In this document: positions 12,036 to 58,367 of the stretch, in pieces | How positions within the stretch are numbered: position 1 is the stretch's first letter | Layout of the letters: each line of letters opens with the position of its first letter | Assembly: GCA_015232315.1 (NCBI GenBank) | Contig: JADFZZ010000003.1 | Span: 156,732-220,731, forward strand | From: SAR324 cluster bacterium | GTDB lineage: Bacteria; SAR324; NAC60-12 | Direction: 5' to 3' | DNA length: 64,000 nucleotides | Made by a program: the position numbers and the translations under genes | The notes under the pieces: generated by a model | Databases searched by the model: none | Seen by the model: only the letters and a program-made list of their open reading frames with translations | What the model was told of the DNA's origin: nothing

Positions 12036-12052
12036 TAAGAAACTCCTTTTTT

Positions 12053-21987: not shown

Positions 21988-22004
21988 ATCAAGGTTGTAT
22001 AAAA

Positions 22005-38679: not shown

Positions 38680-39531
38680 CTAAATGAAATGCGTTGACAG
38701 ACTCTCGATCGCATCAGAATCTTTCATGATATATTCAATCAACGATAACAGATAAACAATCTCCCTGCTCATCTCTTTCATCTCAGAATAATACCATTCC
38801 GCCTGCTGATCCTCGTTTTTCCTGAGAGCCTCCACCGTATTTTGGGCCACTTCATGAAAAAACACATGCAACTCATCCAGTTTTTTAATCTCTTGGATTG
38901 AATTGTAATGTTGTGCTTGGAGATTTTTAGTCCAAAACCCGAGATCGCACTCAGTTGCTGTTGCCAGCGATGTGTGTCGTCCTCGATTTTTGAAGGCGGA
39001 AGGCATATTTTCTGTCCATTGCACATGCTTCAATCGCACATGACTGACCTGAAGTGGACTACCAAGGTTCTGTTCCGGATCACGCTGAGTCTTGGTGTTC
39101 ATGAGATAATCCAGCAAAGAACTCAAGGGATGCGACATCTTTTCCTGGCGCTCCTGCATTTGCGTTGAGGCAAGTTCCAATTCTGTCAAAAGATAGATAA
39201 TCTCCCGACTTACTTCAGTCAGACTTTCCAGCTTCAGATTGATTTCCTCCGTGGTTTTATCCGTCCGGTTTGACATAAGTTCGGAAACTTTGTCATGAAA
39301 CTGAGTATGAACAGAATCCAGCCGTTGAACCGCGTCAAACTGATGAAACTTTTTCAATCCTGAAGCCTTCAACCATAAACCCAAATCGCATTCCATATGG
39401 TTATCGACAGGAGAAAGTGTCTCCTCATTTGTCAGTGCCTGTTTCAAATCAAACATCCATTTCAAATGCAGGATTCTGGCAATATTCACATCGAGAGTTT
39501 CACTATTTTTTCGCATAGACCGATTCTCCAT
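38680..39531 (-). CDS. Stand-alone protein with two tandem CZB (chemoreceptor zinc-binding) domains
   Basis: Two complete CZB signatures: HLKW...CDLGLW...HTQFH and HVQW...CDLGFW...HVFFH. Each is followed by a helical segment containing REI(I/V)YLL. Confidence 0.8.
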   Translation of the reverse strand: MENRSMRKNSETLDVNIARILHLKWMFDLKQALTNEETLSPVDNHMECDLGLWLKASGLKKFHQFDAVQRLDSVHTQFHDKVSELMSNRTDKTTEEINLKLESLTEVSREIIYLLTELELASTQMQERQEKMSHPLSSLLDYLMNTKTQRDPEQNLGSPLQVSHVRLKHVQWTENMPSAFKNRGRHTSLATATECDLGFWTKNLQAQHYNSIQEIKKLDELHVFFHEVAQNTVEALRKNEDQQAEWYYSEMKEMSREIVYLLSLIEYIMKDSDAIESLSTHFI

Positions 39532-39739
39532 TCAACTTCACAAAAGTAATTTCAAAATTTCCCTGAGATTCTCACAACCGGGCTATGGCCCACAACTGCT
39601 TTCCCATACACTCATAAATTTTCATAATCAAGAGTAGTTTTTATCTCAGTTCAATTGACTTATTCCTGATGATCTTATATGTGAAGCTGGTGATCTGATT
39701 GTTAACAATTTTGCATTAATTTATGAACGTGAACCAAAC

Positions 39740-41161
39740 ATGGGACTCTTGATGGAAAAACAACCGGTTCTATTAATCATAGATGATGAGCCAGACCTTT
39801 GGGAGACGATCAAAAACGCTCTCAAGCGGGAAGCCTATGAACTGGTATTTGCTCAAAATGGAAAGCAGGGTCTTGAGCTTTTTCATGAAAGAACTCCCAG
39901 CCTCATTCTATTGGATTTACGCATGCCGGGCATGAACGGCCTGGAGTTTCTGCAAACCATCAAACCAGAACCCTCTGATCCATATTTTGTTTATGTTTTG
40001 ACAGGACATGGAAACAATGAAGATGTTAAAGCTTGTTATGCGGCAGGAGCTCACGGGTTTTTACGTAAACCTTTCAACATCCATGAGCTTCGTGGAGTCT
40101 TGAAACGAAGCATTCAGCTCATTAAAAACAGGGAATTAAGTTCTAACAACAAAGATGCTTACGTCGATTTTATTGTAAACAGCTCCAACTGTCGTACACC
40201 GGAACAATTAACTGAAACCTTCTTCGAAGCTGTCAAACGCCTTTATTTTGAAAACTGGGGTTCACTCAACGTTTCAATCCTTACCAGGAATGAGGGGAGC
40301 GTTTTTGGACTTTCAGACCAAACCTCAGTTGTGAAAGATGGTGCCGCACTTGAGCGGACAGACTTAAATTCTGTCACGAACCTGAGTGCCTTGGAACAGA
40401 AAATATTAAAAAAAACATTGAATGAATATACGGTTGAAACCAAAGAAGGTCAGGCAAAGGATGCACCCACAGTCCATGCCGCCTGGGCAATTTTCTGGGA
40501 ACTGGAGGGGGATCCTGCTGATTCAAGTGGGCTGGCGGTCCTCATACGCAATTATCCATCGCTTGAATGTTCTGATGAAACTCAGTTGGCAACGAGGAAA
40601 AATATCAGGGAAGACATTGAGAATGCTGTGGCCAAGATGCTTGAACGGGTTTCTGAAGTTATGGAAAAACTCAACACCCAAAGAAAGCTGAAAGAAACCA
40701 ATGCTTTGCTGGAAAAACAAAAAACCGAACTTGAACATGAACGGGAAACAACTAAAAAGATTGTGCTTTTCTCTGTGCAGGAATTTCAGGTCATCTTTGA
40801 GGACAGCAATGACAATCAGGAAAAACAGATGGAACTTTGGGAAAACGCGCTCGCCTCTGTTAAAGAATCCTTCAATAAAGCCCTTGAGGCCACTGAAAAT
40901 ACGGTTAGAAGTCGAAATCAACAAATTTCAATGTGGAGGGATTCTGTGGATCAAGTGACCCGGTCCTTCACACAGGCAATGTCCTGTTTCACCGAATTGC
41001 AACCCGGCCAGCAGACCTTTCTGACGAATCTGAATAAACTGAAATCCCTTTACAGTGACACGGATTTGAATGAAAAACTAACACCCGGACAAATGAGTCA
41101 TACCGACGTGTCGGGCCAACAGGAAAACGTTGATGACCTGCTGGCCTCCTTAGGCTTGTGA
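39740..41161 (+). CDS. Response-regulator receiver protein with unknown central domain, coiled coil and CheZ-type C-terminal peptide
   Basis: 473 aa. REC with IIDDE, LLDLRMP, LTGHG, FLRKP. The C-terminus ...SGQQENVDDLLASLGL resembles the CheZ C-terminal CheY-binding peptide (...QDQVDDLLDSLGF). Confidence 0.8.
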   Translation: MGLLMEKQPVLLIIDDEPDLWETIKNALKREAYELVFAQNGKQGLELFHERTPSLILLDLRMPGMNGLEFLQTIKPEPSDPYFVYVLTGHGNNEDVKACYAAGAHGFLRKPFNIHELRGVLKRSIQLIKNRELSSNNKDAYVDFIVNSSNCRTPEQLTETFFEAVKRLYFENWGSLNVSILTRNEGSVFGLSDQTSVVKDGAALERTDLNSVTNLSALEQKILKKTLNEYTVETKEGQAKDAPTVHAAWAIFWELEGDPADSSGLAVLIRNYPSLECSDETQLATRKNIREDIENAVAKMLERVSEVMEKLNTQRKLKETNALLEKQKTELEHERETTKKIVLFSVQEFQVIFEDSNDNQEKQMELWENALASVKESFNKALEATENTVRSRNQQISMWRDSVDQVTRSFTQAMSCFTELQPGQQTFLTNLNKLKSLYSDTDLNEKLTPGQMSHTDVSGQQENVDDLLASLGL

Positions 41162-41187
41162 AACTCAGCGTCCGGAAACCCGATCAA

Positions 41188-41376
41188 AAGTTTCCACCTG
41201 TGCAGGTGGTTTGAAAATGAGCCACCAAGAACGCTAAGAACACGAAAAAAAGGTTTTTTATATAAATGAAGTCCTCCGTGAAACCCTGATTTTCAAGTTT
41301 TCCGGTGTATATTCCCTTTTTTACTTTGTGTTCTTCGTGTACTTCGTGGCTGAAAAAGTACCTGCACAGCTCGATG
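41188..41376 (-). repeat. MITE-like palindromic element, family 2, copy 3 (inverted)
   Basis: Its reverse complement is near-identical to 25139-25325. Track ORF 41184-41441 merely reads through it. Confidence 0.85.
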
Positions 41377-41425
41377 TTATTTATTGAACGTTTCTTAGCC
41401 GGATAATACATCTTCAGAAAATAAA

Positions 41426-43693
41426 ATGAAAAAACTGCCACTCATTTTGATCATTGACGATGAAACCGATATTTGGGATGTGATTTCGCACGCCCTCAAA
41501 CGGGAGTCTGTTGAGTTGATCTTCGCGAAAAACGGGAAGGAAGGCCTGGAACTTTTTTATGAACGGAAGCCCCTTGTGGTGCTTCTTGATCTGCGCATGC
41601 CTGTCATGAACGGAATGCGCTTTCTGGAAACGCTCCAACCCAAACATTCAGACCCTTATTCTGTGCTGGTTTTAACCGGTCATGGGGACGATGAAGAAGT
41701 AAAAATCTGTTACCAATCGGGCGTTCATGGATTTCTGCGTAAACCAATCAATGTGTTTGAACTTCGTGGACTGCTCCTGCAGACGATTGAACTGAAACAG
41801 GCACAGGTTGATTTAAAAAATCAGTTTGAACAACTCCGGCAACTCCAGCTTGAGAAAGATCAGGAATCGCATCGGTTAGCCGATGAACAAGACATTTCCG
41901 GTTTTTTCAGCTCTGTGTTTTATCTGTTTGTTCTGGCCAACCTGGAAGAACGGTCGGTGGATGAAATTCTCGAATCCGCTGAAGACTTTTTAAAAAATGA
42001 GATGAAGCTCGATGTCGTATTGATGCTGGACTCCGAAAAATCTAACAGTGTTTTTCAGGAAGGAGAACAGGAGCTTTTGCTAAGGGCTGTCATTTCCGGA
42101 GAATCCATCACTCGTCTGGAACAGGCCTTCATCTGCTATGTCCCGCCGTTGGCTGTTCTGGTGAGAGATCAAGTCAATATTGATCAGGATAAAATTCAGA
42201 CTTTCGTTTCAGCGGCCGCGTCACGACTGCTCTTCGCCATTGCGGAAGAAAACAAACGTATCATGAACAGAATCCTGGAAGAGGCCATTTTCATGGTCAA
42301 TTCCAGGGGGAAAATCGAGCCGGGTTTCAGTGATGTGTGTTTATCCATGTTTCAAATCAAAGATCGGGAGCAGTTTATTGAAATGCTTCCCGGTGAATTG
42401 TTGTTCGGGAAAAACGCTAAAGCGGAACAATTCTTTGAATGGCTTCAGTTATGTTATAACAGTTTTCTGGATTTTGATGATTTGGTGGCTGTTCAACCCT
42501 CTGAACTTCTTACTGAAGAGGGCAGATGCTTAAGTTTGAAAATGAGTCCGGTCTATAATAATGATCGACAACTGCATTTCATTTTGTTCAAATTGACTGA
42601 CATCACTGAACAAAAACTTCAACGTGCCAAAGTCACGGAAGAGGAAGAACACAATGCGATGATCATCAAAGTCGCCTCCGATCAGGAAGGCTTTCTCCAG
42701 TTACTGGATGAGGTGGAGATGTTATTTCTGGAAATTTACGGGGAATTGAGCCTGCCTGAGGAGGAACTCAATATCCAGAAACTGTTTCGCTATTTTCACA
42801 CTCTCAAAGGCGGAACAGCCAGTTACGGCATGAAACGTGTCGCCGCCGCGTTCCATGAACTTGAAAATCAACTGACCCTCTTTCAGGATTCCTTTCAGTC
42901 TATTGATCTAATATTCATTTCCCAAATGCTCAACAACACCAACGAAGTTCAGGCGCTTTACAACCAGACCCTGGAATACCTCAACGCCTTTATCCCTCAG
43001 GCTCCCGGCAAATCCCGCGAAAAAAACTATAAGGTTTCTGAATTAAAAGTTAAAAAGGTTGAAGAGGCCGCCGCCAGAATTCTGCCGATTCCCCTGTTAC
43101 AACCGATACTGATCGAAGTGGATCGTTTGCGGATGGAACCGATTGGCTCACGCTTCAAAAGACTGGTCTTCATGGTGGAAGAACTTTCCACCCGTTTCAA
43201 TAAACTGGTGGAAGTCAAACTTGTCGGGACAGACCTCGAAGTTCATATAGAGCCCCTGAGATACTTTTTGGGAACCCTGGTCCATTTGATCCGGAATTGT
43301 GTGGATCATGGGATTGAAGAACCGGAAACGAGAATCCGCAACGGTAAACCCGAAACCGGCACAATCACCATTAAAACCTTTAAAGAAGGAAATCTCTTAA
43401 AAATTTCGATTGCGGATGATGGAAAAGGGATTGATGTCAGAACCCTTGCGAGAATCGCTCTGGAAAAAAAGTTGATGAACGAAGAAGCCCTCGAAGCCGC
43501 CACAGAACAGGACTTGCTACAACTCATTTTCGCAGCTGGTTTTTCTACAAAAGAGGAAATTTCGGATATTTCCGGACGTGGTGTGGGAATGGGCGCCATC
43601 AAGAGCGCTGTGGAGGCTCTGCGAGGGTCCATCAGCATCATCAGCACGTTGGGCGAAGGAACAACCTTCGAAATTGCTATCCCCCATTTTTAA
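41426..43693 (+). CDS. REC - GAF/PAS-like - HPt - CheA-type ATPase kinase lacking a CheW-like domain
   Basis: 755 aa. REC (IIDDE, LLDLRMP, LTGHG, FLRKP). HPt motif FHTLKGGTASYG. CheA P4-type boxes HLIRNCVDHGIE, DDGKGID, GRGVGM, GEGTTFEIAIP. The protein ends 3 aa later. Confidence 0.85.
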   Translation: MKKLPLILIIDDETDIWDVISHALKRESVELIFAKNGKEGLELFYERKPLVVLLDLRMPVMNGMRFLETLQPKHSDPYSVLVLTGHGDDEEVKICYQSGVHGFLRKPINVFELRGLLLQTIELKQAQVDLKNQFEQLRQLQLEKDQESHRLADEQDISGFFSSVFYLFVLANLEERSVDEILESAEDFLKNEMKLDVVLMLDSEKSNSVFQEGEQELLLRAVISGESITRLEQAFICYVPPLAVLVRDQVNIDQDKIQTFVSAAASRLLFAIAEENKRIMNRILEEAIFMVNSRGKIEPGFSDVCLSMFQIKDREQFIEMLPGELLFGKNAKAEQFFEWLQLCYNSFLDFDDLVAVQPSELLTEEGRCLSLKMSPVYNNDRQLHFILFKLTDITEQKLQRAKVTEEEEHNAMIIKVASDQEGFLQLLDEVEMLFLEIYGELSLPEEELNIQKLFRYFHTLKGGTASYGMKRVAAAFHELENQLTLFQDSFQSIDLIFISQMLNNTNEVQALYNQTLEYLNAFIPQAPGKSREKNYKVSELKVKKVEEAAARILPIPLLQPILIEVDRLRMEPIGSRFKRLVFMVEELSTRFNKLVEVKLVGTDLEVHIEPLRYFLGTLVHLIRNCVDHGIEEPETRIRNGKPETGTITIKTFKEGNLLKISIADDGKGIDVRTLARIALEKKLMNEEALEAATEQDLLQLIFAAGFSTKEEISDISGRGVGMGAIKSAVEALRGSISIISTLGEGTTFEIAIPHF

Positions 43694-43703
43694 TCAGGAA
43701 AAG

Positions 43704-46031
43704 ATGGAACATCTGGAAAAACTGAAAATTCTGGTACTCGATGATGAAACCGATCTCTGGGAAACCATTCAGGATGCTTTGAAACGGGAACCTTATGAAT
43801 TACACTTTGCCAAAAATGGCAGGGAAGGGTTAGAGCGTTTTTATGAAGTGAAACCCATCGCTGTCCTGCTTGACTTACGCATGCCCGTCATGGACGGTTT
43901 CGCCTTTCTGGACAAGCTTCGTCCAAACCGGGAAGATCCGTATTTTGTTCTTGTCCTCTCGGGTCATGGGGATGATGACGATGTGAAAGCCGCTTATCAG
44001 TTGGGCGCGCAGGGATTCCTTCGCAAGCCGTTCAATGTGTTTGAACTCCGGGGAATCCTCAAACAAAATATTGACTTAAAACAAACGCAAAACCATTCAA
44101 AACAGGAATTACAGCGTCTCTATCAGGAACAATTACAGGAAGCCGCCCGCCTGAAAGCCGAGCAGGAAATATCGGCCTTTTTCAGTTCGGTGTTCTATTT
44201 TGTGCTGGAAAATCTCGAGGAGAGGTCCCCTGAAGAAATATTGGCCTCCATTGAAAGTTTCCTGCGGGATGAAATGCGTCTGGATGTCGCGGTAATTCTG
44301 GATTCCCGACAACAACTGAACAGCTTCAATACCGTGGAAAAAGAACTACTGCTCAATGCGGAAGCGGAAGGAGAACTGATTTTTCGGGAAGGCGGTTATC
44401 TCATCTGCCTGATACGCCCCCTGTATGTCCTGATCAGAAATCCGCCGGATGATTTCGACCAGGACAAACTCCACACCTTTGTTTCTACCGCGGCGTCACG
44501 CCTGGGTTTCGCGATTGCCCAGGACAGCAAACGGATCATGCATGAGGTGTTTGAAGAAGCCGTACTCTTGATCAACAGTCTCGGAGAGATTGAACCCGGC
44601 TTCACTGATATTTGTTTGAAGTTGTTCCATATTGCCGATAAGGCCACGTTTCTGCAAACAACACCGGGAACCCTGATGTATGGAAACACCCCTGACGCGG
44701 AACACTTTCAGGAATGGATTCGCTTATGTTTTGAGGGGGCGCTGGATTTTTCGGACATGCGTGCGTTGCAACCGACAGAAATGAAATCCCCGGACCACAA
44801 AATTCTGGAGATAGAGATGATCCCTATCCGTGATAAGGATCAGAGTTTGAAATTTATATTGATAAAATTTAAAGACGTCACCGCCTTGCGTGAACAGCAG
44901 GTTGAACTTGAACACCAGCAACATGTGCAGTTAGCAACCCTGAAAGTCATCAAAAATCGATCAGCATTCCTGAATTATTATCGCCTGGTGATGGATAGTT
45001 TTTCCAGTCAGGACGCAATCTTATCGGTTCCGCATACTGATCTGATTCGTTCGTTACATACCGCAAAAGGGATGTCAGGTGTCTTTTACCTGAAAGGCAT
45101 CCAGCAAAAATGTCATGATGCCGAAACCCTGTTAAAACTTGAACCGACACTTTCACCGGGAAGTTCTGTGATCGAATTGATCCAATCCATTGCTGACTGG
45201 CTTCAGGATTTCATCAACAAAGAGGTTTTACACTGGGTTCTGGGGGAAGATGACCGGTCCTTCACCGTTGACAAAAACTGGTTTTTACATATCCAGCGTC
45301 AGTTTCAGGTTCAAACGGATTTCACGCAGAACAGGGTTCAGCATCTTCTGCGGCAAATCACCTTCATCCCGTTGATATCTCTGTTCAAGCATTTTGAAAC
45401 GGTTCTGCAGGATTTGGCAGTGGCTCGGGGTAAAAGTCTGTACCCTCTCATGATCAATGACGATTCCGGCATTTTTGTACCACCGAAGGTATTGGATAAC
45501 TTAATAAACTCCATGAGTCATCTCTTTCGCAATGCGGTCGATCATGGCATAGAAACCACTGAGACCAGGACCATGCTGGATAAAAATGAAATGGGTCGTA
45601 TTGATCTTCATTTAGAAAGTGATGCGACTCACCTGATCATCCGGGTTTCAGATGATGGACAAGGCATTGATCAAAACAAACTGTTGAAGCATGCCGTCTC
45701 AAAAAACCTGATTTCGGCTGAAAAAGCCACAACGCTGAACAACGATGAAATCCGGCATCTGGTTTTTTGGGATGGCCTATCCACAAAAGAAGAAGTTGAT
45801 CTGGTGAGCGGTCGAGGTGTCGGGATGAGTGATGTGAGAGCCTCATGCAGGGAACTTGGCGGCACCATTGATTATCAAACCGGGATTGGTAAAGGAACCA
45901 TCTGGACCATCGCTCTGCCCCTGGAACGTATTTATGGCGAACTGGTTCCGCCTGAATACTATGCGTTGAACATTGTTGAATCTGTCCCTGAAAAGTCGGG
46001 GGTTGGTCCTGTTTTCTGTCACAAATTGTAG
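43704..46031 (+). CDS. REC - GAF/PAS-like - HPt - CheA-type ATPase kinase (paralogue of 41426-43693)
   Basis: ATG 43704 follows AGGAAAAG. 775 aa. Same REC signatures, HPt LHTAKGMSGVF, ATPase boxes HLFRNAVDHGIE, DDGQGID, GRGVGM, GKGTIWTIALP. No P5-like domain. Confidence 0.85.
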   Translation: MEHLEKLKILVLDDETDLWETIQDALKREPYELHFAKNGREGLERFYEVKPIAVLLDLRMPVMDGFAFLDKLRPNREDPYFVLVLSGHGDDDDVKAAYQLGAQGFLRKPFNVFELRGILKQNIDLKQTQNHSKQELQRLYQEQLQEAARLKAEQEISAFFSSVFYFVLENLEERSPEEILASIESFLRDEMRLDVAVILDSRQQLNSFNTVEKELLLNAEAEGELIFREGGYLICLIRPLYVLIRNPPDDFDQDKLHTFVSTAASRLGFAIAQDSKRIMHEVFEEAVLLINSLGEIEPGFTDICLKLFHIADKATFLQTTPGTLMYGNTPDAEHFQEWIRLCFEGALDFSDMRALQPTEMKSPDHKILEIEMIPIRDKDQSLKFILIKFKDVTALREQQVELEHQQHVQLATLKVIKNRSAFLNYYRLVMDSFSSQDAILSVPHTDLIRSLHTAKGMSGVFYLKGIQQKCHDAETLLKLEPTLSPGSSVIELIQSIADWLQDFINKEVLHWVLGEDDRSFTVDKNWFLHIQRQFQVQTDFTQNRVQHLLRQITFIPLISLFKHFETVLQDLAVARGKSLYPLMINDDSGIFVPPKVLDNLINSMSHLFRNAVDHGIETTETRTMLDKNEMGRIDLHLESDATHLIIRVSDDGQGIDQNKLLKHAVSKNLISAEKATTLNNDEIRHLVFWDGLSTKEEVDLVSGRGVGMSDVRASCRELGGTIDYQTGIGKGTIWTIALPLERIYGELVPPEYYALNIVESVPEKSGVGPVFCHKL

Positions 46032-46058
46032 GGGCGAACCTGTGTGTTCGAACTGATA

Positions 46059-46346
46059 CCAATGTCGTCAACTTAAGGCGTTCTTCGCCGTGGAATCCCC
46101 TTTTCAAAGGGGTCATGGGGGATTTAAAGCTCAGAATAACATCCCACTAACCCCCTTGAACCAAGGGGAATTGGTGCCAGCGCCTTCACAATGTCGTCAA
46201 CTTAAGGCGTTCTTCGCCGTGGAATCCCCCTTTTCAAAGGGGTCATGGGGGATTTAAAGCTCAGAATAACATCCCCCGCCCCAGCACCCTTAAACCAAGG
46301 GGGAATTGGTGCCAGCACCTTCACAGGGCTTAACTTAACAGACGTG
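46059..46346 (+). repeat. Two head-to-tail family-1 MITE copies (46059-46188 truncated, 46189-46346 complete)
   Basis: Both begin caatgtcgtcaacttaaggcgttcttcgccgtggaatcccc. Only the second has a right end, and it is of the other subtype (cttaacttaacagacgtg). Confidence 0.85.
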
Positions 46347-46628
46347 GACGAGACGTCAGGAACCAGAGTAGTGTTAAAAAACTTTTGATCGGGTACTTAC
46401 CATCCGGTTGACGCTAAGGAACATTCGAAAAATAAAACAGATAAATTCTCCGAACAATATTTCCTGTCGGGCACACGTAGAGACGCGCTATAGCACGTCT
46501 CTACAGACCAGAACAGGAGAGACTGGATTGGAAAATGTTTACAACTTATTCTTTTGCCGTTCCTAAAATCATAAGAACAACCCCGGGTGTACTGTCGGCG
46601 CAATCCGTTTCATTAAAAGGTTTCAAAC

Positions 46629-49508
46629 ATGCTGCATATAGGCATTATCGGTGGATCTCAAAAACAGATTGATACCTTACTGGCCATCCATAACACCAAT
46701 AAAGTCCCCTTTTTTTCCAGATCAAATGCTGTCATTTCCGTGATTGAAGCGGAGGAATCCGCAGAGGAATTGCTGATTGATGCATTGTTTTATGTGTCGC
46801 CAGTCAGTCATCTGGAACATGATTCAAAGCAGGCGAGAGCGTCCATGAAATGGATCCGGGGACTCCGGAACTACTCCTCTTATGGCGTCCGGAAAACGAT
46901 ACGAGGTTGTCACCATCTGTTGATCGGAGACATTCCACAGTATTTGAACCAGATCAAAAAAATGGATATAGATCTGTTTGTTCATTTTCAGGAGAACCCT
47001 GAATGGCAAATCGTCGACAGCATAGAACTCTTGTTCCATAAGAGGGACTTGATTGAAATGCCCGAGATCCATTCTGTGACAGATTCCTCCAAAAACACGC
47101 GTCAAGCCTCAACGAATGTCCGTATCCCTGTCAGTGAAATCGATACAGTCCGGTTTCAGGAAAACGGGGATAATGAGAAGGCGTCCTTGAACGAATCATC
47201 GCCCCGGTTTCATTCGGTGCGCCTGAAAGATCAGGAAGGAGCCCAAACGATTGCGGAACTGAAGGGTGTGGATATTCCGTTTCAAAATATCACCTCCCTG
47301 ACTTTCAAGCAAAAAGGCCAGGGCAGGATGTCCCTGCCCGTTGATTCAATCCAGGCCTTGAAATCCGGGAAACACAACGTTTGGGCGCTGGAATTATTCG
47401 AATTGTGGAAAATCCGGGAAAAAGTATGTGCTTCGGGGACATTTCAGTTACGTCTGGACGCGACAGCCTTCAAAGACCTGGTCATTGATGAGGCTTCCTA
47501 TCTGCCGATCAGATTGAATCATGCTCTTTCGCGGGTCAACCGCCGGTGTGAAGCGCAACAATGGGACAAGTACATGGAATTCCGGACCTTCAGTCTTCAG
47601 GAACGTCCTGTTTTGATCGCGCTTGACGCGGATTTGGCGGCCATCCTGGTGAAACAGATCGGGAACATCGGGTTCAAGGATGTACGGATCATTACCAATG
47701 ATGATGAACTCGGGCAGACACTGAATGAATGCCATCTCTTCAATGAAAATCAGGAGTTTTCAACCACAGTCAAGTTTCCTACCTTAATCACGACCCAGGC
47801 TCGACAAGCGCAGATTAAACAACAATATCCGGCAATCCAATGTTATGGAATTCCCGGGTTTGACCTCATTGATCCCAAAAATATCGGGCAAAACGCGGAA
47901 CGGGAACTTTTAAAAAATGAAGTCGAAAACAAGATTCAGAGTCTCCTGCAAGAGGCTGAAAACAACCCCTTGCAGACGTTTTACCTCAAAATCGTTCATC
48001 TGTTCATGATGTACCAGCTTGAGGAAAATACCACTGATATCATCGCCAAACTGCAGAAACAGACGGAACATTTTATTGGAAATTTATCCAGACTGTTTCA
48101 GGCGGAAGCCCGGAAAATTCAGGAACAGAAGAATCTAAAACTGAAAATAGAGGCTAAAATCAAAGAATTGAACGCGGAGATTACCAAATTAAACCTTGCG
48201 ATCACTGAGGCGGAACAAAAAATCAAAAAACTGGATGGAGCTTTGCAGCAAAAAAAGGCCCTGACGGATCAAATGGCTGAACAGGAACATACCGTGAATG
48301 ATCTCAAAGACCAAATCAGCGCGACAATCCTGGAACAGGAAAAACTGAAACTGGAAGTCGAGGCCGACCGTGCGGATCGTGAGCAAACTACTCTGCAACT
48401 GGAAGAACTTAAAAAAAAGTATGATGATTTGTTGTTCCAGCACGAAAAAAATAAAGTGATTTTCGGTACGCCGGAGCAGGTCGCAAGAATCAAAAAACAG
48501 ATTCAAAAATTCCCTGCACGGAAACAGTCGCTGGAGGACCAGATTGCGGCAACTCAAAATATGCTCGACACACTGTCTGTTGCGGTGAAGCAACTCAACG
48601 GAACACAAAATAAATGTGCTCAACTCGAAACGCGTCTGAAAAATGAGAAGCATACCCTGGAACAGTTATCCGAAAAAGTGGAAGTCACCATGGGAAAACA
48701 TGAACGGGCCTTGAAGGCGTTTCTGTTGCATCATGAGAAGGTTACAAGCCGTTTGAATCTGGTTCAGGAAGCCTTGAATAAACTGAACCTCCGCTATCAA
48801 AAACTCAGCACCGATCTGATGGGGCGTGAATCGGCCTACCAACAGGAAAAGAGCCATGCTGAGTCGTTTGGTCAAAAAATTCTGAACTGGATCAGAAATA
48901 TCGGGGACATCAGTGAACTGGGCGAAGGGCTTTCCACTCTGGGAAACGAGGCCGATGTGGGCTTGCGGGAAATTAAAGAACTGATTGAGATGATCAATAA
49001 ATTGATGACTCTGCGGAAAATTCAGGATGCCGACCAGTCCCTGGTAACAGATGTCATGGCGACCCTGGAGAAAAATTTCACTTTTTATCATTTGCCGCAA
49101 CTGGAACAACTGGAGGCTCCGCTCGTTTTTATCGGGGACAAGATGAATTATCCTGTTTTCACCAACAAGTTACTGTCCATGGTTCAGGCCAATGAACAAA
49201 AGGGCGTCACGTTGAACTGGGATCGGTTTGAACATACCAATGTCTCATTTTCCAAACAGATCATCCTGCTCGACCTTTCAGATCGGGCCGACGATGAAGA
49301 ACTTCATGCGAAAGTCGGTGAGTTTTGCATGCAACTGGCGTTGCAAAACTTTATGATCATCCTGTTACCTGATGAAGTTCTCTTTGACCCTAAATGGCAG
49401 GTCTTCAGAAGCATGTCACTCTGCCTTCCCGCAAAACATCTGGACACCTTTCTGGCACCGCCCTTGTTCCAATGGATGCAAAACATCCAAAAATGGAATG
49501 CGCTGTAG
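46629..49508 (+). CDS. Large coiled-coil protein, unknown function
   Basis: 959 aa. The central ~330 aa are heptad-rich (KIKELNAEITKLNLAITEAEQKIKKLDGALQQKK...). The globular N- and C-terminal parts have no recognisable catalytic motifs. Confidence 0.75.
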   Translation: MLHIGIIGGSQKQIDTLLAIHNTNKVPFFSRSNAVISVIEAEESAEELLIDALFYVSPVSHLEHDSKQARASMKWIRGLRNYSSYGVRKTIRGCHHLLIGDIPQYLNQIKKMDIDLFVHFQENPEWQIVDSIELLFHKRDLIEMPEIHSVTDSSKNTRQASTNVRIPVSEIDTVRFQENGDNEKASLNESSPRFHSVRLKDQEGAQTIAELKGVDIPFQNITSLTFKQKGQGRMSLPVDSIQALKSGKHNVWALELFELWKIREKVCASGTFQLRLDATAFKDLVIDEASYLPIRLNHALSRVNRRCEAQQWDKYMEFRTFSLQERPVLIALDADLAAILVKQIGNIGFKDVRIITNDDELGQTLNECHLFNENQEFSTTVKFPTLITTQARQAQIKQQYPAIQCYGIPGFDLIDPKNIGQNAERELLKNEVENKIQSLLQEAENNPLQTFYLKIVHLFMMYQLEENTTDIIAKLQKQTEHFIGNLSRLFQAEARKIQEQKNLKLKIEAKIKELNAEITKLNLAITEAEQKIKKLDGALQQKKALTDQMAEQEHTVNDLKDQISATILEQEKLKLEVEADRADREQTTLQLEELKKKYDDLLFQHEKNKVIFGTPEQVARIKKQIQKFPARKQSLEDQIAATQNMLDTLSVAVKQLNGTQNKCAQLETRLKNEKHTLEQLSEKVEVTMGKHERALKAFLLHHEKVTSRLNLVQEALNKLNLRYQKLSTDLMGRESAYQQEKSHAESFGQKILNWIRNIGDISELGEGLSTLGNEADVGLREIKELIEMINKLMTLRKIQDADQSLVTDVMATLEKNFTFYHLPQLEQLEAPLVFIGDKMNYPVFTNKLLSMVQANEQKGVTLNWDRFEHTNVSFSKQIILLDLSDRADDEELHAKVGEFCMQLALQNFMIILLPDEVLFDPKWQVFRSMSLCLPAKHLDTFLAPPLFQWMQNIQKWNAL

Positions 49509-49819
49509 ACCCCTCATTTTCCTCCATTGTAATTAATTTTTTTCCTCCCGGCTAAAATAGATTTTTTGGCATGGTCTTTGTTATATTCTGTCCTGAAGGT
49601 CAGATGTTGTCCTGAATCTCATATCCTGTATTGCTTTTATGCAATAAAACAGGTTATAGCTAACATGATGTGTTCCGGGTTTCTGATTCCCGATGTTTTG
49701 TAAAAACCTCATCGAACCAGTCCTGATCACATCACAAACGCAGGAGACAGACTCCACGTATTGAGCATTCTTCAACTGGAATGCGGAAATATTGAATAAC
49801 CTTTTGCAATAAAAACGAT

Positions 49820-50185
49820 ATGTCCAAGAAAGCTTTGGTAATGGATGATTCACCGATTATCCGGAAAATGTTGACACATGGCCTGACCCGTTCGTTTGGC
49901 TTTGAGGTCATTGAAGCCGAAAATGGTCAGGATGGATTGACAAAGACCTCCCAACACGAGTTTGATTTGATTTTTTCCGATATCAATATGCCGGTCATGA
50001 CGGGGGTAGAATTTCTTGAAAAGTTCCGTAGCACCAACACCACAACCCCGGTGTTCATGCTTACCTCGGAAAAAGAAGATGTTTACAAACAAAAATGTCT
50101 GGATTTAGGAGCAACCGATTTTTTCAAAAAGCCGTTCAAACCAAATACCATCGAAGCCGCGTTGAAACAACTTCTGGAGGGGTGA
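49820..50185 (+). CDS. cheY: Single-domain response regulator, CheY-like
   Basis: 121 aa. VMDDS, FSDINMP (acceptor Asp), MLTSE (Thr), FFKKP (Lys). Confidence 0.85.
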   Translation: MSKKALVMDDSPIIRKMLTHGLTRSFGFEVIEAENGQDGLTKTSQHEFDLIFSDINMPVMTGVEFLEKFRSTNTTTPVFMLTSEKEDVYKQKCLDLGATDFFKKPFKPNTIEAALKQLLEG

Positions 50186-50233
50186 TCAGGCTGATTCATC
50201 AATTGCCAGACTTCTGGTTCCCATGCTCTGCGT

Positions 50234-50388
50234 CAAGGCTGTTAAGTTAAGAAATTACCTGCGAGAAAATCCCCCTTTTCAAAGGGGGCATGGGGGATTT
50301 AACGCTCAGAGTTACATCCCCCTAACCCCCCTTAAACCAAGGGGGAATTGGTGCCAGTGACTTCACAGGGCTTAACTTAACAGACGTG
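50234..50388 (+). repeat. MITE-like element, family 1, flanked by an 11-bp direct repeat
   Basis: Termini are caaggctgttaagttaag / cttaacttaacagacgtg. ATGCTCTGCGT occurs at 50223-50233 and 50389-50399. Confidence 0.9.
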
Positions 50389-50414
50389 ATGCTCTGCGTG
50401 GGAACCTCCGGGGG

Positions 50415-50566
50415 CAATGTCGTCAACTTAAGGCGTTCTGCGCCGGGGAAGCCCTCTTTTCAAAGGGGGCTTGGAGGATTTAACGCTCAGAATTACATCC
50501 CCCTAACCCCCTTGAAACAAGGGGGAATTGAAACACAGCACCATTCAGAATGCTTAACTTCTAACA
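50415..50566 (+). repeat. MITE-like element, family 1, with a degenerate right end
   Basis: It starts caatgtcgtcaacttaaggcg, has a conserved core, and its right terminus is decayed (cttaacttctaacacc). It lies 26 bp after the previous copy. Confidence 0.8.
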
Positions 50567-50577
50567 CCTGAAAACAA

Positions 50578-54426: not shown

Positions 54427-54591
54427 ACAATAGTAAGCGTTCAGCCGTCAGTTATCAGTACGATATTTTTTGCTATTGAGTTATAATGCTTCTGAAGCGT
54501 ATAAACACTGAAAGCTGAATAATGAAAGCTGAACGCTTACGAACAATATTCTGTTCAGGTGTCAGTTTGACACCAAATCAATAGGAGAAAT

Positions 54592-54891
54592 ATGCTACCC
54601 ACTACTGAAAAAAAAAATGACCGTATTACAGCACGAGTGCCTACAGATATACGCGAACGTCTGATAGAAGCCGCAGCGTTTTCTGGAGCGACCCTGAACC
54701 AGTTTTTAATCCAGGCCGCAATTGAAAAGGCCAACACAATCCTTGAAAAAGAACGGATCATCCATCTCTCTTATCATGATGCGGAAGTATTTTTTAAGGC
54801 ACTGGAAAATCCCCCCAAGCCCAATCAACGTTTACGGAAAGCCATAACAAAATATAAAGATTCAGGCCTCTATGAACCCGTTCAAGATTGA
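54592..54891 (+). CDS. Type II antitoxin, DUF1778 / TacA-like (RHH)
   Basis: 99 aa. RITARVPTDIRERLIEAAAFSGATLNQFLIQAAIEKA. Overlaps the downstream GNAT gene by 20 nt. Confidence 0.85.
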   Translation: MLPTTEKKNDRITARVPTDIRERLIEAAAFSGATLNQFLIQAAIEKANTILEKERIIHLSYHDAEVFFKALENPPKPNQRLRKAITKYKDSGLYEPVQD

Positions 54892-55375
54892 GCTACTGAC
54901 AACAAAACATCACAAACAGAAATTTGATTGTGGTGTGAAAGAACTTAATCATTACCTTCAATCAATGGCATCTCAACATGCCACTAAAGGAATTTCCAGA
55001 ACTTTTGTTCTCGTACATCCTCAGGAACCAGAGAATATCCTGGGGTTTATCACTCTGTCCATCTGTGAGATTAACGCTCAAATACTTCCAACGCAGTTCG
55101 CCAAGAAGTTTCCCTCTAAAGTTCCTGGCGCAAAGATTGGTCGATTAGCCATCTCCCGAAAACATCAACGACAAGGATTAGGAGAACTCTTGATGCTTCA
55201 TGCAATGAATCAAACGCTTCTGGTTCATCATGTCTTTGGCCTTACCGGAGTATTAGTTGATGCTAAACATGAACAGGCACAACAGTATTACATCCGCTAT
55301 GGATTTATCCCATTACCCCAAATACCACTGACGTTATTTCTTCCGATAAAAACTCTCTTGGAAGCATTTAAATGA
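54872..55375 (+). CDS. GNAT-family acetyltransferase toxin (TacT/AtaT-like)
   Basis: 167 aa. FDCGVKELNHYLQ..., RLAISRKHQRQGLGELLMLHA (acetyl-CoA site), ...YYIRYGFIPL. The pairing with a DUF1778 gene is typical. Confidence 0.85.
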   Translation: MNPFKIELLTTKHHKQKFDCGVKELNHYLQSMASQHATKGISRTFVLVHPQEPENILGFITLSICEINAQILPTQFAKKFPSKVPGAKIGRLAISRKHQRQGLGELLMLHAMNQTLLVHHVFGLTGVLVDAKHEQAQQYYIRYGFIPLPQIPLTLFLPIKTLLEAFK

Positions 55376-55415
55376 ACAATCGCAATTGTTCGAGAAAGCC
55401 AACAGGGAAAACGCA

Positions 55416-56642
55416 ATGACTAATAAAGTTATCGATCTGTACCACTACAGAGATCCATCCTCCACCATGGAGACTGTCCTGACGCTTTTGTCGAAATGGT
55501 CACAAAAATCCCGGGAGCAGGCAAACCTTGATCATTTGAGATTAAGGAGCCTCCTGCCAGCCCTGTTTCTGGAATTCAACCATTATGAAATGGAGCTCAG
55601 AATCAAAGTGATCGATCTGCTGGCACAGGCTCAGATTTCAGAAGCTGTGCCCTTTCTGGTTGCCTATCTGAGTGATTCTGACCCGGAAATGAAAGCAAGT
55701 GTAATTCAGGCCCTGGGCGTGCTGAAGAATCACTTTGCGGTTCTGCCTTTGAAAAACGCCTATGATCATGAATCCCCGGAACTCAGGCAGGAGATTCTCA
55801 AAGCACTGAGCCTGCTGGTGGACGATGTGTTCTTTTCTCATTTTTTGGGGAGTGATCCAAATCTGAACAGAATTACGATTGCCATGGAACTTCTGGACAT
55901 GCTCTCGTCCGAAAATCAGCAATTACTATCTCCCCGGGGATTCAGAATGTTCCTGGATCAACTGCTTCCACATTTTTTAAAAATCCGACGTGCGGATTTT
56001 GATGTAAAAACATTAAAACAGACCATAAACACACTCGAAAATGAATTACATACGCATCATGATCAACATGAGCGTGCCCTTGAAACAATGAAATTCCAAA
56101 TGAAAATCCAGCATTTGCAGTTACAGGGTTTTCTGGAAGTTCCTTCTGCCCGGGATGTTTTGGAAAGTGACGCGCCTGTTGAGGAAAAACCGTACCCTGT
56201 GCAACCTCAAAAGTTTTTGAGTTTGAAGGAGGTGATTATTCAGGCAAACAAAAGTGTCCTTGAAGAAGACACCCGTAACAATGTGAGGAAAAAGGTAACC
56301 TTTACCAAAACGCTACAGCTCGAACCTTCGATGGCTGAGAACTTACTGTTGCTTCTGAAACACCTCATGAGCCTGGCAAATTCAATTGCGAGACCAGACC
56401 GGAAGGTTCAGATCCGGATCAATGACATACACGCGGATCAACCTAGCACTTCCACTATTATCACGATGAAAGGAACCGCCGTTGATCCAACCTCACTTGA
56501 ACGTTTGATCTCAACCCATCCCGTGTATCAGGAACTGAAAAGAACGGTTTCTTTTCTTGGCTGGACAGTAGACAGAACCATGGATCGTGGTGATTTCTGT
56601 ATCACGATTCAGGTAAAATCTCCCTCTTCAACTTTACCTTGA
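55416..56642 (+). CDS. HEAT-repeat protein, paralogue of the N-terminal part of the 1282-aa kinase
   Basis: About 408 aa from ATG 55416 (the track ORF begins at TTG 55386). VIDLYHYRD... and the HEAT units (AVPFLVAYLSDSDPEMKASVIQALGVL...) parallel VIELRDYKD... and PHIIPYCFQPDPYLKAQAVKSLELL in the larger protein. No HPt or ATPase boxes. Confidence 0.7.
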   Translation: MTNKVIDLYHYRDPSSTMETVLTLLSKWSQKSREQANLDHLRLRSLLPALFLEFNHYEMELRIKVIDLLAQAQISEAVPFLVAYLSDSDPEMKASVIQALGVLKNHFAVLPLKNAYDHESPELRQEILKALSLLVDDVFFSHFLGSDPNLNRITIAMELLDMLSSENQQLLSPRGFRMFLDQLLPHFLKIRRADFDVKTLKQTINTLENELHTHHDQHERALETMKFQMKIQHLQLQGFLEVPSARDVLESDAPVEEKPYPVQPQKFLSLKEVIIQANKSVLEEDTRNNVRKKVTFTKTLQLEPSMAENLLLLLKHLMSLANSIARPDRKVQIRINDIHADQPSTSTIITMKGTAVDPTSLERLISTHPVYQELKRTVSFLGWTVDRTMDRGDFCITIQVKSPSSTLP

Positions 56643-56702
56643 AAACAATAAGGAATTGTAAAAGAATCAATTGTAAAAGTTTGCTCGTGCCCTACGTCCC
56701 GT

Positions 56703-56856
56703 TCAGGGCTGTTAAGTTAAGAAATTACCTGCGAGAAAATCCCCCTTTTCAAAGGGGGCAGGGGGATTTAAAGCTCAGAATAACATCCCCCTAACCCCCT
56801 TAAACCAAGGGGGAATTGGTGCCAGTGCCTTCACAGTGCTTAACTTAACAGACGTG
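56703..56856 (+). repeat. MITE-like element, family 1, flanked by a 10-bp direct repeat
   Basis: Termini are tcagggctgttaagttaag / cttaacttaacagacgtg. TACGTCCCGT occurs at 56693-56702 and 56857-56866. Confidence 0.9.
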
Positions 56857-56925
56857 TACGTCCCGTGGTTCCTAACCAGAAAGTTTTCCCTGTTATTTTT
56901 TGAACGTTCCTAACAGTTGTTTCCT

Positions 56926-58050
56926 ATGATTGAGCACAAAATTATCATTGTTGATGATGAAATGATCATCCGGCATATGATAGAAAAAAAATTATCAGAT
57001 CAGGGTATTGAGGTGCTTCAGGCAACCGATGGACTCAGTGGACTCCAATTGATTCTTGAACATCCTGAGGTCAAACTTATTGTGACTGATTATAAAATGC
57101 CCCGGATGGATGGTTTTACCATGCTGAAAAAAGCCAGAGAGATCCGCTCGGACTTTCGTTTTATTCTGATGTCCGGTCATGCTCAAGGAGGCGATATTAT
57201 TGATGCCTTGAGGTTGTCTGCCAGTGATTTTTTTATTAAACCGTTCAATTTGGGGACTTTTTCGACATCCATCAAACGCAATTTGATTGAAATCGAGCAG
57301 GAAGCCACACAAAAGCACCTACAGGAACAATTGCTCCAGTCTGCCAAATTGGCTTCCATCGGGGAGTTAGCCACTGGAATTGCTCATGAAATAAATCAAC
57401 CACTGTCCTATATCAGCGGCCATGTTCAAACACTTCTGGAAGATATTGAACTGGAAGATGTCACCTTGAAGGAGGTTTATGCTTTAATGAAAGAGTTCGA
57501 AAAACGCATCGGGCGAATCAACTCCATAATATCCCATCTCCGCTTCTTTGGTCGTGAGCACGGATCAACATTCAGTGAGACAAATCTGGTCGATGTTTTC
57601 GAAAGCTGTCTGCTACTCCTCAACGAAAAAATTCGCCTCAGAAGCATTGAACTGAAATTTGAACACAGTGAAAATCTGCCTTTGATCAAAGGAAATTCTC
57701 ATCAGTTGGAGCAGGTGTTGATCAACTTGTTCCAAAATGCCATTGACGCTCTGGAACATCGAAACGATGGGCGCATCACCGTTCAAATCAACCATCATCC
57801 TGAAAAGGAGGTCATTGAGATACGCTTTACAGACAATGGAAGCGGCATTTCACCCAAGGATTTAGGTCACATTTTTGATCCGTTCTTCACGAAAAAACCG
57901 GTAGGAAAGGGGACGGGTCTCGGGCTATCCATCTCGTTTGGCATCATCCAGGCCCATCGGGGAACCATTGTCTGTGAGTCGGAACTCAATAAGGGAACCT
58001 GTTTCATCATCACCTTACCGACACCAACGGATCGAGAACAGACAGACTAA
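56926..58050 (+). CDS. Hybrid REC - HisKA - HATPase_c sensor histidine kinase
   Basis: REC (IVDDE, IVTDYKMP, LMSGH, FFIKP). H-box GIAHEINQPLSYI, N-box NLFQNAIDAL, G1 DNGSGI, G2 GTGLGLSIS. The track ORF begins at TTG 56917. Confidence 0.88.
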   Translation: MIEHKIIIVDDEMIIRHMIEKKLSDQGIEVLQATDGLSGLQLILEHPEVKLIVTDYKMPRMDGFTMLKKAREIRSDFRFILMSGHAQGGDIIDALRLSASDFFIKPFNLGTFSTSIKRNLIEIEQEATQKHLQEQLLQSAKLASIGELATGIAHEINQPLSYISGHVQTLLEDIELEDVTLKEVYALMKEFEKRIGRINSIISHLRFFGREHGSTFSETNLVDVFESCLLLLNEKIRLRSIELKFEHSENLPLIKGNSHQLEQVLINLFQNAIDALEHRNDGRITVQINHHPEKEVIEIRFTDNGSGISPKDLGHIFDPFFTKKPVGKGTGLGLSISFGIIQAHRGTIVCESELNKGTCFIITLPTPTDREQTD

Positions 58051-58092: not shown

Positions 58093-58214
58093 CGGTTATT
58101 TCTTTATGCCCCCTAAACCTGAAGGCAATGATTGATTTTATGACAGAATTTTAATCTTGTGAATGTGCCGTCAATCATTATTCTGACGCCCTTGATTATT
58201 TCCGGGGTAACGTT

Positions 58215-58367
58215 CACGTTTGTTACGTTAAGCACTGTGAAGGCACTGGCACCAATTCCCCCTTGGTTTAAGGGGGTTAGGGGGATGTTATTCTGAGCTT
58301 TAAATCCCCCATGCCCCCTTTGAAAAGGGGGATTTTCTCGCAGGTAATTTCTAACTTAATAGCCTTG
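58215..58367 (-). repeat. MITE-like element, family 1 (inverted orientation)
   Basis: Reverse complement of the 56703-type copy. Imperfect flanking duplication (G)GGGTAACG(TT) / (A)GGGTAACG(CG). Confidence 0.85.

Follow-up and report, generated by a model that had tools for sequence, protein, structure and literature searches.

What are CheA-type kinases doing beside a set of magnetosome genes, with no chemoreceptor and no coupling protein near them? The question is raised by a stretch of DNA from an uncultured SAR324 bacterium (contig JADFZZ010000003.1), here called the window, which is 64,000 nucleotides (nt) long and has a G+C content of ~45%. A Pfam scan identifies the window as a magnetosome gene cluster, and a block of signalling genes (38680-58050) begins in it 424 nt past the gene that follows mamB. 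The block encodes three kinases, K755, K775 and K1282 (the last also called HEAT-kinase A), each with a CheA-type phosphotransfer domain (HPt, the P1 of CheA) and ATPase domain (P4). They are accompanied by REC-473, a receiver (REC) protein; a stand-alone CheY-like receiver; a protein of 959 amino acids (aa) with a coiled coil; and several peripheral proteins. A first-pass annotation, made from the letters alone, had named all of these signalling elements, and all were found where it had placed them, although one of them turned out to be something else.

The best explanation overall, which in our judgement has about an even chance of being right, is a receptor-independent, CheA-derived cytoplasmic phosphorelay dedicated to the magnetosome. 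Its parts are not equally firm. The architecture and the phosphorelay are highly probable; the link to the magnetosome, which is based on gene neighbourhood in one uncultured lineage, is tentative and falls a little short of even.

The closest relatives of the window's proteins come from metagenome-assembled genomes (MAGs) named "SAR324 cluster bacterium" in a survey of magnetotactic bacteria by Lin et al. 2020 (PMC7602337), which contains four SAR324 MAGs with magnetosome clusters and makes no mention of kinases or chemotaxis genes. The loci compared below are L001 from the window species, L002 and L007 from nPCR_bin10, L003 and L008 from nPCR_bin7, L004 from "Deltaproteobacteria bacterium TL4" (TL4), and L005, one JGI metagenome contig.

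CheA Chemistry without the Array

As read from their sequences, the three kinases keep the phosphotransfer chemistry of CheA, with the H/K/H/E residues of a P1-type HPt and intact P4 boxes, and have lost the parts that couple CheA to the array: P5/CheW, P2, and most or all of P3. All three ATPase domains align end to end with the P4 domain of T. maritima CheA at 35-45% identity, and the N, G1, F and G2 box residues are invariant among them; the N box had been described in the first pass. In phmmer comparisons with the P4 domains of T. maritima and E. coli CheA in the PDB, the matches have E values of 8e-42 (K755), 1e-33 (K775) and 2.6e-31 (K1282), and they end at residues 753 of 755, 740 of 775 and 1273 of 1282. 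With 2, 35 and 9 residues left after P4, there is no room for a P5 domain of ~130 aa; the earlier distances (3 to about 45 residues) had to be adjusted, and the point they made about the missing P5/CheW domain stands. The AlphaFold2 (AF2) model of K755 has a pLDDT of 73, and Foldseek matches it to CheA P4 with TM-scores of 0.88-0.96.

The HPt domains align by MAFFT with the P1 domains of 12 genuine CheAs, and Pfam recognizes Hpt in K755 and K775. The motifs FHTLKG, LHTAKG and LHMSKG, already noted in the first pass, are confirmed and belong to a full CheA-P1 tetrad: H458/K461/H477/E480 in K755, H452/K455/H471/E474 in K775, and H1010/K1013/H1029/E1032 in K1282. The spacing (H, K+3, H+19, E+22) is that of E. 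coli CheA (H48/K51/H67/E70).

What is missing was sought by profile. At E ≤ 0.01, neither H-kinase_dim (PF02895) nor CheW (PF01584) matches any of the three kinases. A home-built P5 hidden Markov model (HMM), made from the 12 CheAs, has no match in P0001 (K755), in P0002 (a representative at least 90% identical to K775), or in P0124 (the TL4 orthologue of K1282). The distance from the phospho-His to the start of P4 is 110 aa in K755, 99 aa in K775 and 74 aa in K1282, and the P3 region of K755 is modelled as two short helices (539-552 and 559-568) with pLDDT <50. The P3 dimerisation domain thus seems largely vestigial or missing in all three, a point that the first pass had not raised; P3 is known to be poorly conserved and often missed by HMMER (PMC10782961).

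K755 and K775 are the two REC-(GAF/PAS-like)-HPt-ATPase proteins of the first-pass annotation, and Pfam finds REC, Hpt and HATPase_c in both. The PAS-like domain of K755, modelled with pLDDT 80-90 and matched weakly by PAS_9, is preceded by a 60-residue helix and an alpha/beta domain. For K775, the likeliest start is the ATG at 43704, 10 nt past the K755 stop, which gives 775 aa; an overlapping GTG at 43578 is also open. K775 is 43-46% identical to the kinases of L002, L003 and L004, and K755 only 33-34%; by this measure, the REC-HPt-kinases of the other genomes, which occur singly or in pairs, are orthologues of K775.

K1282 is built differently. Pfam finds HEAT_2, REC, HEAT and HATPase_c, in agreement with the earlier description, and orthologues with 51-56% identity occur in four other assemblies. 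Its REC domain lacks the acid pocket, the phospho-Asp and the Lys (EQ / A / T / R) and is therefore a pseudo-receiver. The suggestion that residues 530-700 are a degenerate P4 domain is unsupported (hhalign probability 1.5%).

The element that had to be renamed is the 418-aa "HEAT paralogue", which is instead a truncated orthologue of a second HEAT-kinase. Its residues 11-268 are 51% identical to the N-terminus of the 1356-aa HEAT-REC-kinase of L002, residues 277-409 align with residues 546-659 of that protein, and it is 58% identical to the 1316-aa protein of L003. In these two genomes, HEAT-kinase B is a full-length HEAT-REC-HPt-kinase of 1316-1356 aa. The window protein is, on these alignments, a decayed HEAT-kinase B, which has kept the HEAT/coiled-coil part and a piece of the middle domain and has lost the pseudo-receiver, HPt and P4.

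Receivers and Other Partners

What could receive the phosphoryl group? All the receivers of the block other than that of K1282 have complete catalytic residues. The stand-alone CheY-like protein (121 aa), in which Pfam finds only REC, as the first pass had it, carries every phospho-acceptor residue (D12, D13, D57, T87 and K109 in an alignment with E. coli CheY), and in NCBIfam it has generic receiver matches only. It is also the best-conserved protein of the block, with 72-78% identity between genomes, compared with 41-67% for the Mam proteins compared (tblastn). Among the REC domains of REC-473, K755 and K775, identities are 59-67%, against ~30% to other receivers; consequently, the three probably share one upstream phosphodonor.

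REC-473 ends in a CheZ-type peptide. Its C-terminus is QQENVDDLLASLGL, and the extreme C-terminus of E. coli CheZ is SQDQVDDLLDSLGF; over the last 21 residues, 11 of 21 are identical in an end-to-end match (pairwise BLASTP E 0.007), which upholds the first-pass identification. The peptide, which can be written Q-x-x-VDDLL-x-SLG-[LF], follows a helical region and a probable flexible linker, and it is invariant in the REC-473 orthologues of L002 and L005, which are 40% identical overall. Is REC-473 then a CheZ? This idea was rejected. Neither Pfam nor a sequence search of the PDB finds a CheZ domain, in the whole protein or in the C-terminal 184 aa alone, and a PDB profile search with whole REC-473 returns only receivers. 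Its sole D-x3-Q (DSVDQ), the pattern formed in CheZ by the catalytic D143 and Q147, is not kept in L002 or L005.

The middle domain of REC-473 (residues 128-275) also occurs as a free-standing 186-aa gene in TL4 (L004, 6543-7103, minus strand; 45% identity), between the genes for the 965-aa protein and CheY; the middle domain is therefore an autonomous module. In nPCR_bin10 (L002, 13435-15617), the block continues with genes for a DUF7793/SpoIIAA-like protein and for a STAS-domain protein, which flank REC-464; this may be the sign of a partner-switching branch, one that the window does not have.

The 959-aa protein has no Pfam family. As in the first-pass description, it contains a coiled coil, of ~300 aa, between poorly modelled N- and C-terminal alpha/beta domains. 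The AF2 model, from an alignment of four sequences, has a pLDDT of 52.7; the coiled coil (~490-750) is its only confident part, and the terminal domains are below 50. NCBIfam-level matches are weak and limited to the coiled coil of SMC/Rad50.

Three further elements of the interval do not appear to belong to the core. The CZB (chemoreceptor zinc-binding) protein, in which Pfam confirms two CZB stretches, is present in L001 and has no tblastn homologue in L002-L008, so that by this comparison it is a peripheral protein of the window species only. The REC-HisKA kinase, likewise confirmed by Pfam (REC, HisKA, HATPase_c), has a full-length but below-cut-off match to the NCBIfam model hybrid_RR_LvrB; tblastn finds no orthologue in the related loci, just matches at the level of REC. 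It appears peripheral too, and a possible phosphodonor. The TacA/GNAT toxin-antitoxin pair, which the first pass had not listed, is present in L001 and absent from that position in L002 and L003; it is an insertion between HEAT-kinase A and the truncated HEAT-kinase B, outside the signalling system.

MCPsignal, CheW, CheR and CheB were absent from Pfam scans of the principal (non-nested) open reading frames of the window, mostly of at least 100 aa, in line with the first pass, and MCP, CheW, CheR and CheB were also absent among the genes called on L001-L005. Could a canonical chemotaxis operon be completed just outside the block? This was rejected: the flanks consist of mam genes upstream and of CDF, CbiZ, CobD and methyltransferase genes downstream. 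The statement that this is not a canonical chemotaxis operon thus holds, since CheA-type P1 and P4 occur here without P5 and without the partner genes nearby.

A Wider Family of Compact Kinases

Is the loss of P5 peculiar to the magnetosome island? The wider searches say otherwise. When 1.84 billion representative proteins were searched exhaustively by HMMER with a profile running from HPt to P4, dozens came up, beyond the island proteins, with one colinear match of ~345 aa that finishes at the C-terminus or a few residues before it. Among the best 150 matches, 47 have no match to the P5 HMM, and 41 of these 47 have at most 30 residues after P4, a few of which may be truncated by the end of a contig. 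Ten members of the family were scanned with Pfam: HAMP, GAF, CHASE5, AhpC/redoxin or no recognized N-terminal domain is followed by Hpt and HATPase_c, and CheW or H-kinase_dim was found in none of the ten. Wherever the source of a member is named, it is a SAR324 MAG, TL4 or a proteobacterial MAG without further classification.

A neighbour-joining tree built on the P4 domains puts K755 inside a pure clade of 35 P5-less members and leaves K775 and the HEAT-kinases without a resolved position; a single P5-less clade holding all the island kinases is therefore unsupported, only K755 being placed there. NCBIfam has no model for the compact kinases, the best matches being CheA models that cover P4 only and score far below the cut-off. 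No paper was found on P5-less CheA-type sensor kinases or on CheA-like kinases tied to SAR324 magnetosome clusters, and the compact HPt-P4 family is apparently undescribed.

The same searches brought up giant CheA-type kinases of metagenomic origin that lack P5 and stop exactly where P4 does: P0200 (4858 aa), P0203 (1950 aa) and P0276 (1980 aa). P0200, which is labelled CheA/HAMP in the JGI annotation, has 32 matched stretches and P0203 has 15; these are probably long arrays of HPt domains.

Repeats and Erosion of the Block

The block in the window is not in its best shape. The region is dotted with a MITE-like element (miniature inverted-repeat transposable element) of ~150 bp, with 18-bp terminal inverted repeats (CAATGTCGTCAACTTAAG…) and two internal C5/G5 hairpins. 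At least eight full copies are present, all between 20 and 58.4 kb, that is, in the magnetosome cluster and the signalling block; self-BLAST finds none in the flanking 1-18 kb or 58.5-64 kb, and the other SAR324 loci yielded no copy. In strain L001 (96-99% identical), where only two copies of the element were detected, a shorter stretch that does not align takes the place of the interval with the two tandem copies (46060-46334). These insertions account for the large intergenic gaps of the block; in the orthologous, MITE-free locus L002, the genes are 6-15 nt apart and look like an operon.

A second, unrelated repeat family of ~175 bp (89% mean column identity) has the terminal inverted repeats CACCTGTGCAGGT … ACCTGCACAG, and one of its copies fills the gap between the REC-473 and K755 genes. 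A Rfam scan of the window matched no family, the ~175-bp repeat included, and the notion that the intergenic repeats are known RNAs was rejected, given this result and their MITE-like character.

Is the whole block, then, a decaying, non-functional chemosensory remnant that has lost CheW, MCP and P5? The truncation of HEAT-kinase B to 418 aa and the inserted toxin-antitoxin pair and MITEs would suit such a view. However, the three kinases and the receivers have intact reading frames and keep their catalytic residues, the pseudo-receiver of K1282 excepted. Furthermore, orthologues at 33-56% identity lack P5 in the same way, and so does a large family of proteins whose C-terminus coincides precisely with the end of P4; this speaks for long-term selection and not for recent decay. 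A decaying remnant is accordingly a very improbable explanation.

Conservation beside the Magnetosome Genes

Where else does this set of genes occur? Among 5.8 billion clustered proteins, full-length homologues number three for K755 (its own cluster counted), five for the 1282-aa kinase and four for the 959-aa protein (again with its own cluster). The homologues of the core proteins are confined to a few SAR324/TL4-type assemblies: the window species, nPCR_bin10, nPCR_bin7, TL4 and one JGI contig. A metagenome scan with the 959-aa family gave no match, and one with the N-terminal profile of the HEAT-kinases gave a single 15-residue match at a contig end, with nothing else recognizable there. 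The conserved core consists of the 959-aa protein, CheY, HEAT-kinases A and B, one or two REC-PAS-HPt-kinases and REC-47x. The first-pass view of the block as a unit therefore holds for this core and has to be given up for the CZB and REC-HisKA proteins.

Three divergent SAR324 genomes with magnetosome genes carry the block 0.4-9 kb downstream of mamB, with a different junction in each. In the window, mamB is followed by a 192-aa gene and then the block. In nPCR_bin10 (L007), the operon mamK-M-O-A-Q-B is followed by a 185-aa gene and the 953-aa homologue of the 959-aa protein, on the same strand. In nPCR_bin7 (L008), ~9 kb with iron genes, mmsF and a Na/Ala symporter separate mamB from the 1000-aa protein, CheY and the kinases. 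As the Mam proteins of the three genomes are only 40-67% identical and the junctions differ, the adjacency has survived rearrangement.

Does this adjacency mean that the block serves the magnetosome? A different account, unlikely in our view though far from negligible, holds that it is a lineage-specific two-component network that merely neighbours the mam cluster and controls, for example, general motility, development or a redox response; it would travel with the island since the region gathers accessory and mobile DNA. The many compact P5-less kinases found elsewhere in SAR324/TL4 with HAMP, GAF, CHASE5 and AhpC sensors fit this account, as do the abundance of MITEs, the toxin-antitoxin insertion, and the variable junctions, above all the 9 kb of other genes in nPCR_bin7. 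Against it, the 959-aa protein, the HEAT-kinases and REC-47x have been found only in assemblies of this magnetosome-bearing lineage; the block is kept near mamB in three genomes despite the rearrangements and the divergence of the proteins; and in nPCR_bin10 the 953-aa gene follows a mamAB-type operon on the same strand.

Several observations weigh against a phosphorelay dedicated to the magnetosome, and they are best listed together. No mam genes are found in the few kb visible beside the block in TL4 (L004) or in the JGI contig L005, a point that also suits the neighbouring-network account. The nPCR_bin10 contigs L007 and L002 end without overlap, so that their contiguity is inferred. The synteny is confined to one narrow lineage, hardly sampled beyond the four MAGs of Lin et al., whose sampled members all have mam genes, and lineage and phenotype are thus confounded. 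No homologue of the block was found in magnetotactic bacteria of other phyla, and it is not conserved across magnetosome clusters generally, which again agrees with a mere neighbour. To judge from the wider family, the compact P5-less kinase is a habit of the lineage and not a speciality of the island, which uses special versions of it. The block of the window is itself eroded, with HEAT-kinase B truncated and the toxin-antitoxin pair and MITEs inserted, and REC-473 has no CheZ catalytic motif that would support a role as a phosphatase.

On balance, the tie to magnetosome function proposed in the first pass has gained from the finding of the block near mamB in three SAR324 genomes; it stays circumstantial, with lineage and phenotype inseparable. 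The core is joined to a mamAB-type cluster in three rearranged genomes and is absent elsewhere, and therefore magnetosome-related behaviour is its most likely business.

How the Relay May Work

In the magnetosome-dedicated phosphorelay, input would come through the modules fused N-terminally to the kinases: in K755 and K775, a phospho-accepting REC, a long helix, an alpha/beta domain and a PAS-like sensor; in the HEAT-kinases, HEAT repeats, a coiled coil and a pseudo-receiver, which may be docking or scaffold modules. Autophosphorylation would probably occur in cis, because the HPt is fused almost directly to P4. The phosphoryl group would then pass from the kinases to the stand-alone CheY-like receiver. 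REC-473 could capture CheY~P through its CheZ-type peptide and act as a sink, a phosphatase-like terminator or an adaptor, and a donor shared by its receiver and those of K755 and K775 may be one of the HPt domains or, in the window species, the REC-HisKA kinase. The 959-aa coiled-coil protein may be a scaffold.

And the output? It could be the flagellar switch or the organisation of the magnetosome chain, so that the behaviour under control would be swimming (magnetotaxis) or chain positioning. A quite improbable variant, drawn by analogy, takes only the second side: the system would regulate chain assembly or positioning and not swimming, with the HEAT/coiled-coil parts acting like Mad23, Mad25 and Mad26 and phosphorylation switching their interactions. 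In D. magneticus RS-1, Mad23 (HEAT/coiled-coil) and Mad25 and Mad26 (coiled-coil) form a network that organises the chain, and they interact with each other and with MamK (Russell et al. 2025, PMC12748827). The window has comparable ingredients: in both HEAT-kinases, HEAT_2 is followed by a predicted coiled coil, the 959-aa protein adds its own coiled coil, and the cluster encodes MamK and a second actin-like protein beside a ParA-like ATPase. However, HEAT_2 repeats and coiled coils are generic, and the likeness to Mad23/Mad25 is a lead from the literature. A stand-alone CheY and a CheZ-type CheY-docking peptide are instead hallmarks of motor-directed pathways, and the very high conservation of CheY suits a conserved target such as the flagellar switch.

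A bolder form of the magnetosome-dedicated phosphorelay, and a long shot, is that the HEAT/coiled-coil modules and the 959-aa protein dock the kinases on the magnetosome chain or an actin-like filament, the chain replacing the MCP/CheW array as input. If so, the state, position or torque of the chain would govern CheY phosphorylation and, through it, the motor: a dedicated magnetoreceptive pathway made from a CheA stripped of P3/P5 and fused to magnetosome-binding scaffolds. It is still a matter of debate whether a dedicated signalling system links the magnetosome chain to motility in magnetotactic bacteria. A conserved CheA/CheY-type module attached to the mamAB cluster of an early-branching lineage is a concrete candidate for such magnetotaxis signalling.

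Genomic Setting

The positions of the features are collected in Table 1. Upstream of the main mam genes, a gene for a second actin-like protein (518 aa, MreB/MamK-type) lies immediately downstream of one for a ParA/MinD-type ATPase, both just upstream of the first, smaller mam module. Across its core, the actin-like protein is 55% identical to the MamK of nPCR_bin10, and it has an N-terminal extension of ~180 aa; together with the ATPase, it may form a chain-positioning pair. Iron and metal genes are unusually dense around the cluster (10349-14946 and 58471-59640).

Table 1. Features of the window, in order of position within each group; numbering starts at the first nucleotide of the window.
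Feature	Position	Strand	Description and basis
Signalling block
CZB protein, 283 aa, cytoplasmic	38680-39531	-	Pfam CZB x2, E 4.5e-18; divergent from REC-473 gene
REC-473	39740-41161	+	REC, conserved unknown middle domain, helical region, CheZ-type C-terminal peptide
K755	41426-43693	+	REC, long helix, alpha/beta, PAS-like, HPt (H458), ~30 aa of apparently vestigial P3, P4; no P5
K775	43704-46031	+	K755 paralogue with matching architecture; phospho-His H452; 35-aa tail after P4
959-aa protein	46629-49508	+	no Pfam family
CheY-like receiver, 121 aa	49820-50185	+	Pfam REC, E 2e-29
HEAT-kinase A / K1282, 1282 aa	50578-54426	+	HEAT, coiled coil, pseudo-receiver, ~170-aa unknown domain, second HEAT, HPt (H1010) fused directly to P4; no P3, no P5
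TacA-like antitoxin (99 aa) and GNAT toxin (167 aa)	54592-55375	+	Pfam TacA1, E 1e-22; Acetyltransf_7/10/1
HEAT-kinase B remnant, 418 aa	55386-56642	+	Pfam HEAT_2
REC-HisKA-HATPase hybrid kinase, 377 aa, LvrB-like	56917-58050	+	Pfam REC, HisKA, HATPase_c
Magnetosome cluster
Smaller upstream mam module	18559-22472		Pfam
MamE-type Trypsin-magnetochrome-PDZ	25941-28679		Pfam
MamK, actin-like	30865-32067		Pfam
CDF transporters, MamM/MamB type (two)	32320-33222, 36810-37676		Pfam
MamO-type Trypsin-TauE	33225-35072		Pfam
MamA, TPR	35401-36063		Pfam
MamQ, LemA	36070-36813		Pfam
Repeats
MITE-like element, ~150 bp, two tandem copies	46059-46339 (46059-46190, 46189-46339)	+	self-BLAST, alignment
Further MITE copies	35145-35282(-), 38337-38486, 50233-50388, 50415-50560, 56703-56860, 58210-58368(-); partial 20186-20223
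Second repeat family, ~175 bp	4331-4508(-), 25140-25330(-), 41184-41372(+)
Flanking genes
Extra CDF transporters	10349-11338, 14323-14946
Iron-dependent-repressor C-domain fused to FeoA	11367-12083
FeoB	12053-14053
518-aa actin-like protein and ParA/MinD-type ATPase	15709-18016	-
CDF fused to dinitrogenase FeMo-cofactor-binding (Nitro_FeMo-Co) domain	58471-59640

Comparison with Known Systems

Does anything already described look like this? A literature search returned no paper describing this gene set, in keeping with the first-pass remark that no described system of this composition was known to it, and the comparison is therefore made part by part. On the magnetosome side, the nearest parallel is the Mad23/Mad25/Mad26 network: in both cases, HEAT and coiled-coil proteins are encoded with magnetosome genes in a deep-branching lineage of the deltaproteobacterial type. 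The Mad proteins, however, are not kinases, whereas the SAR324 proteins add a pseudo-receiver, an HPt and a CheA-type ATPase.

CheZ is the CheY~P phosphatase of beta- and gammaproteobacteria. REC-473 resembles it in the C-terminal peptide, the helical region and the probable linker, and differs in its N-terminal receiver and unknown middle domain and in having neither a CheZ domain nor a conserved D-x3-Q.

With the compact SAR324/TL4 kinases, the island proteins share the HPt-P4 unit of ~345 aa that ends at the last P4 strand. The difference lies in what is attached to this unit and in the company it keeps. The compact kinases have HAMP, GAF, CHASE5 or AhpC sensors and the look of ordinary stand-alone kinases, whereas the island kinases have REC/PAS-like or HEAT/pseudo-REC modules, and their genes stand in a cluster that also encodes CheY, REC-47x and the 959-aa protein.

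The best full-length database neighbours of the island P4 domains are the hybrid CheA-REC kinases of the Tfp and ACF classes, such as ChpA, WspE and FrzE. These proteins also join receivers to CheA cores, and they run intramolecular phosphorelays. However, their receiver is C-terminal, they keep P3 and P5, and they have MCP/CheW partners, whereas the receiver of the island kinases is N-terminal and would serve as an input, and the domains for coupling to the array are missing.

There remains CheA itself. The island kinases resemble it in the spacing of the P1-type HPt, in a P4 domain that is 35-45% identical in sequence and has the same fold, and in their best NCBIfam matches, which are CheA models; as in a canonical cluster, their neighbours include a CheY-like receiver and a protein with a CheZ-type peptide. 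They differ in lacking P5, P2 and a detectable H-kinase_dim, with 0-30 aa where a P3 of ~60 aa is expected, in the REC, PAS-like and HEAT input modules fused to them, and in a neighbourhood where no MCP, CheW, CheR or CheB was found. The CheA core has been defined as P1, P3, P4 and P5, a sensor domain being absent by definition, and a P5/CheW domain was present in 100% of the 13,673 CheAs surveyed (Berry, Andrianova & Zhulin 2023, PMC10782961). By this definition and this count, the island kinases are not CheAs, despite their CheA chemistry. CheA is otherwise sensor-less and bound to arrays; here, its catalytic core (P1 and P4) appears to be used without P3 and P5 and fused to inputs of its own, which bears on the evolution of chemotaxis kinases and on the question whether a P1-P4 unit could function as a monomer that phosphorylates itself in cis.

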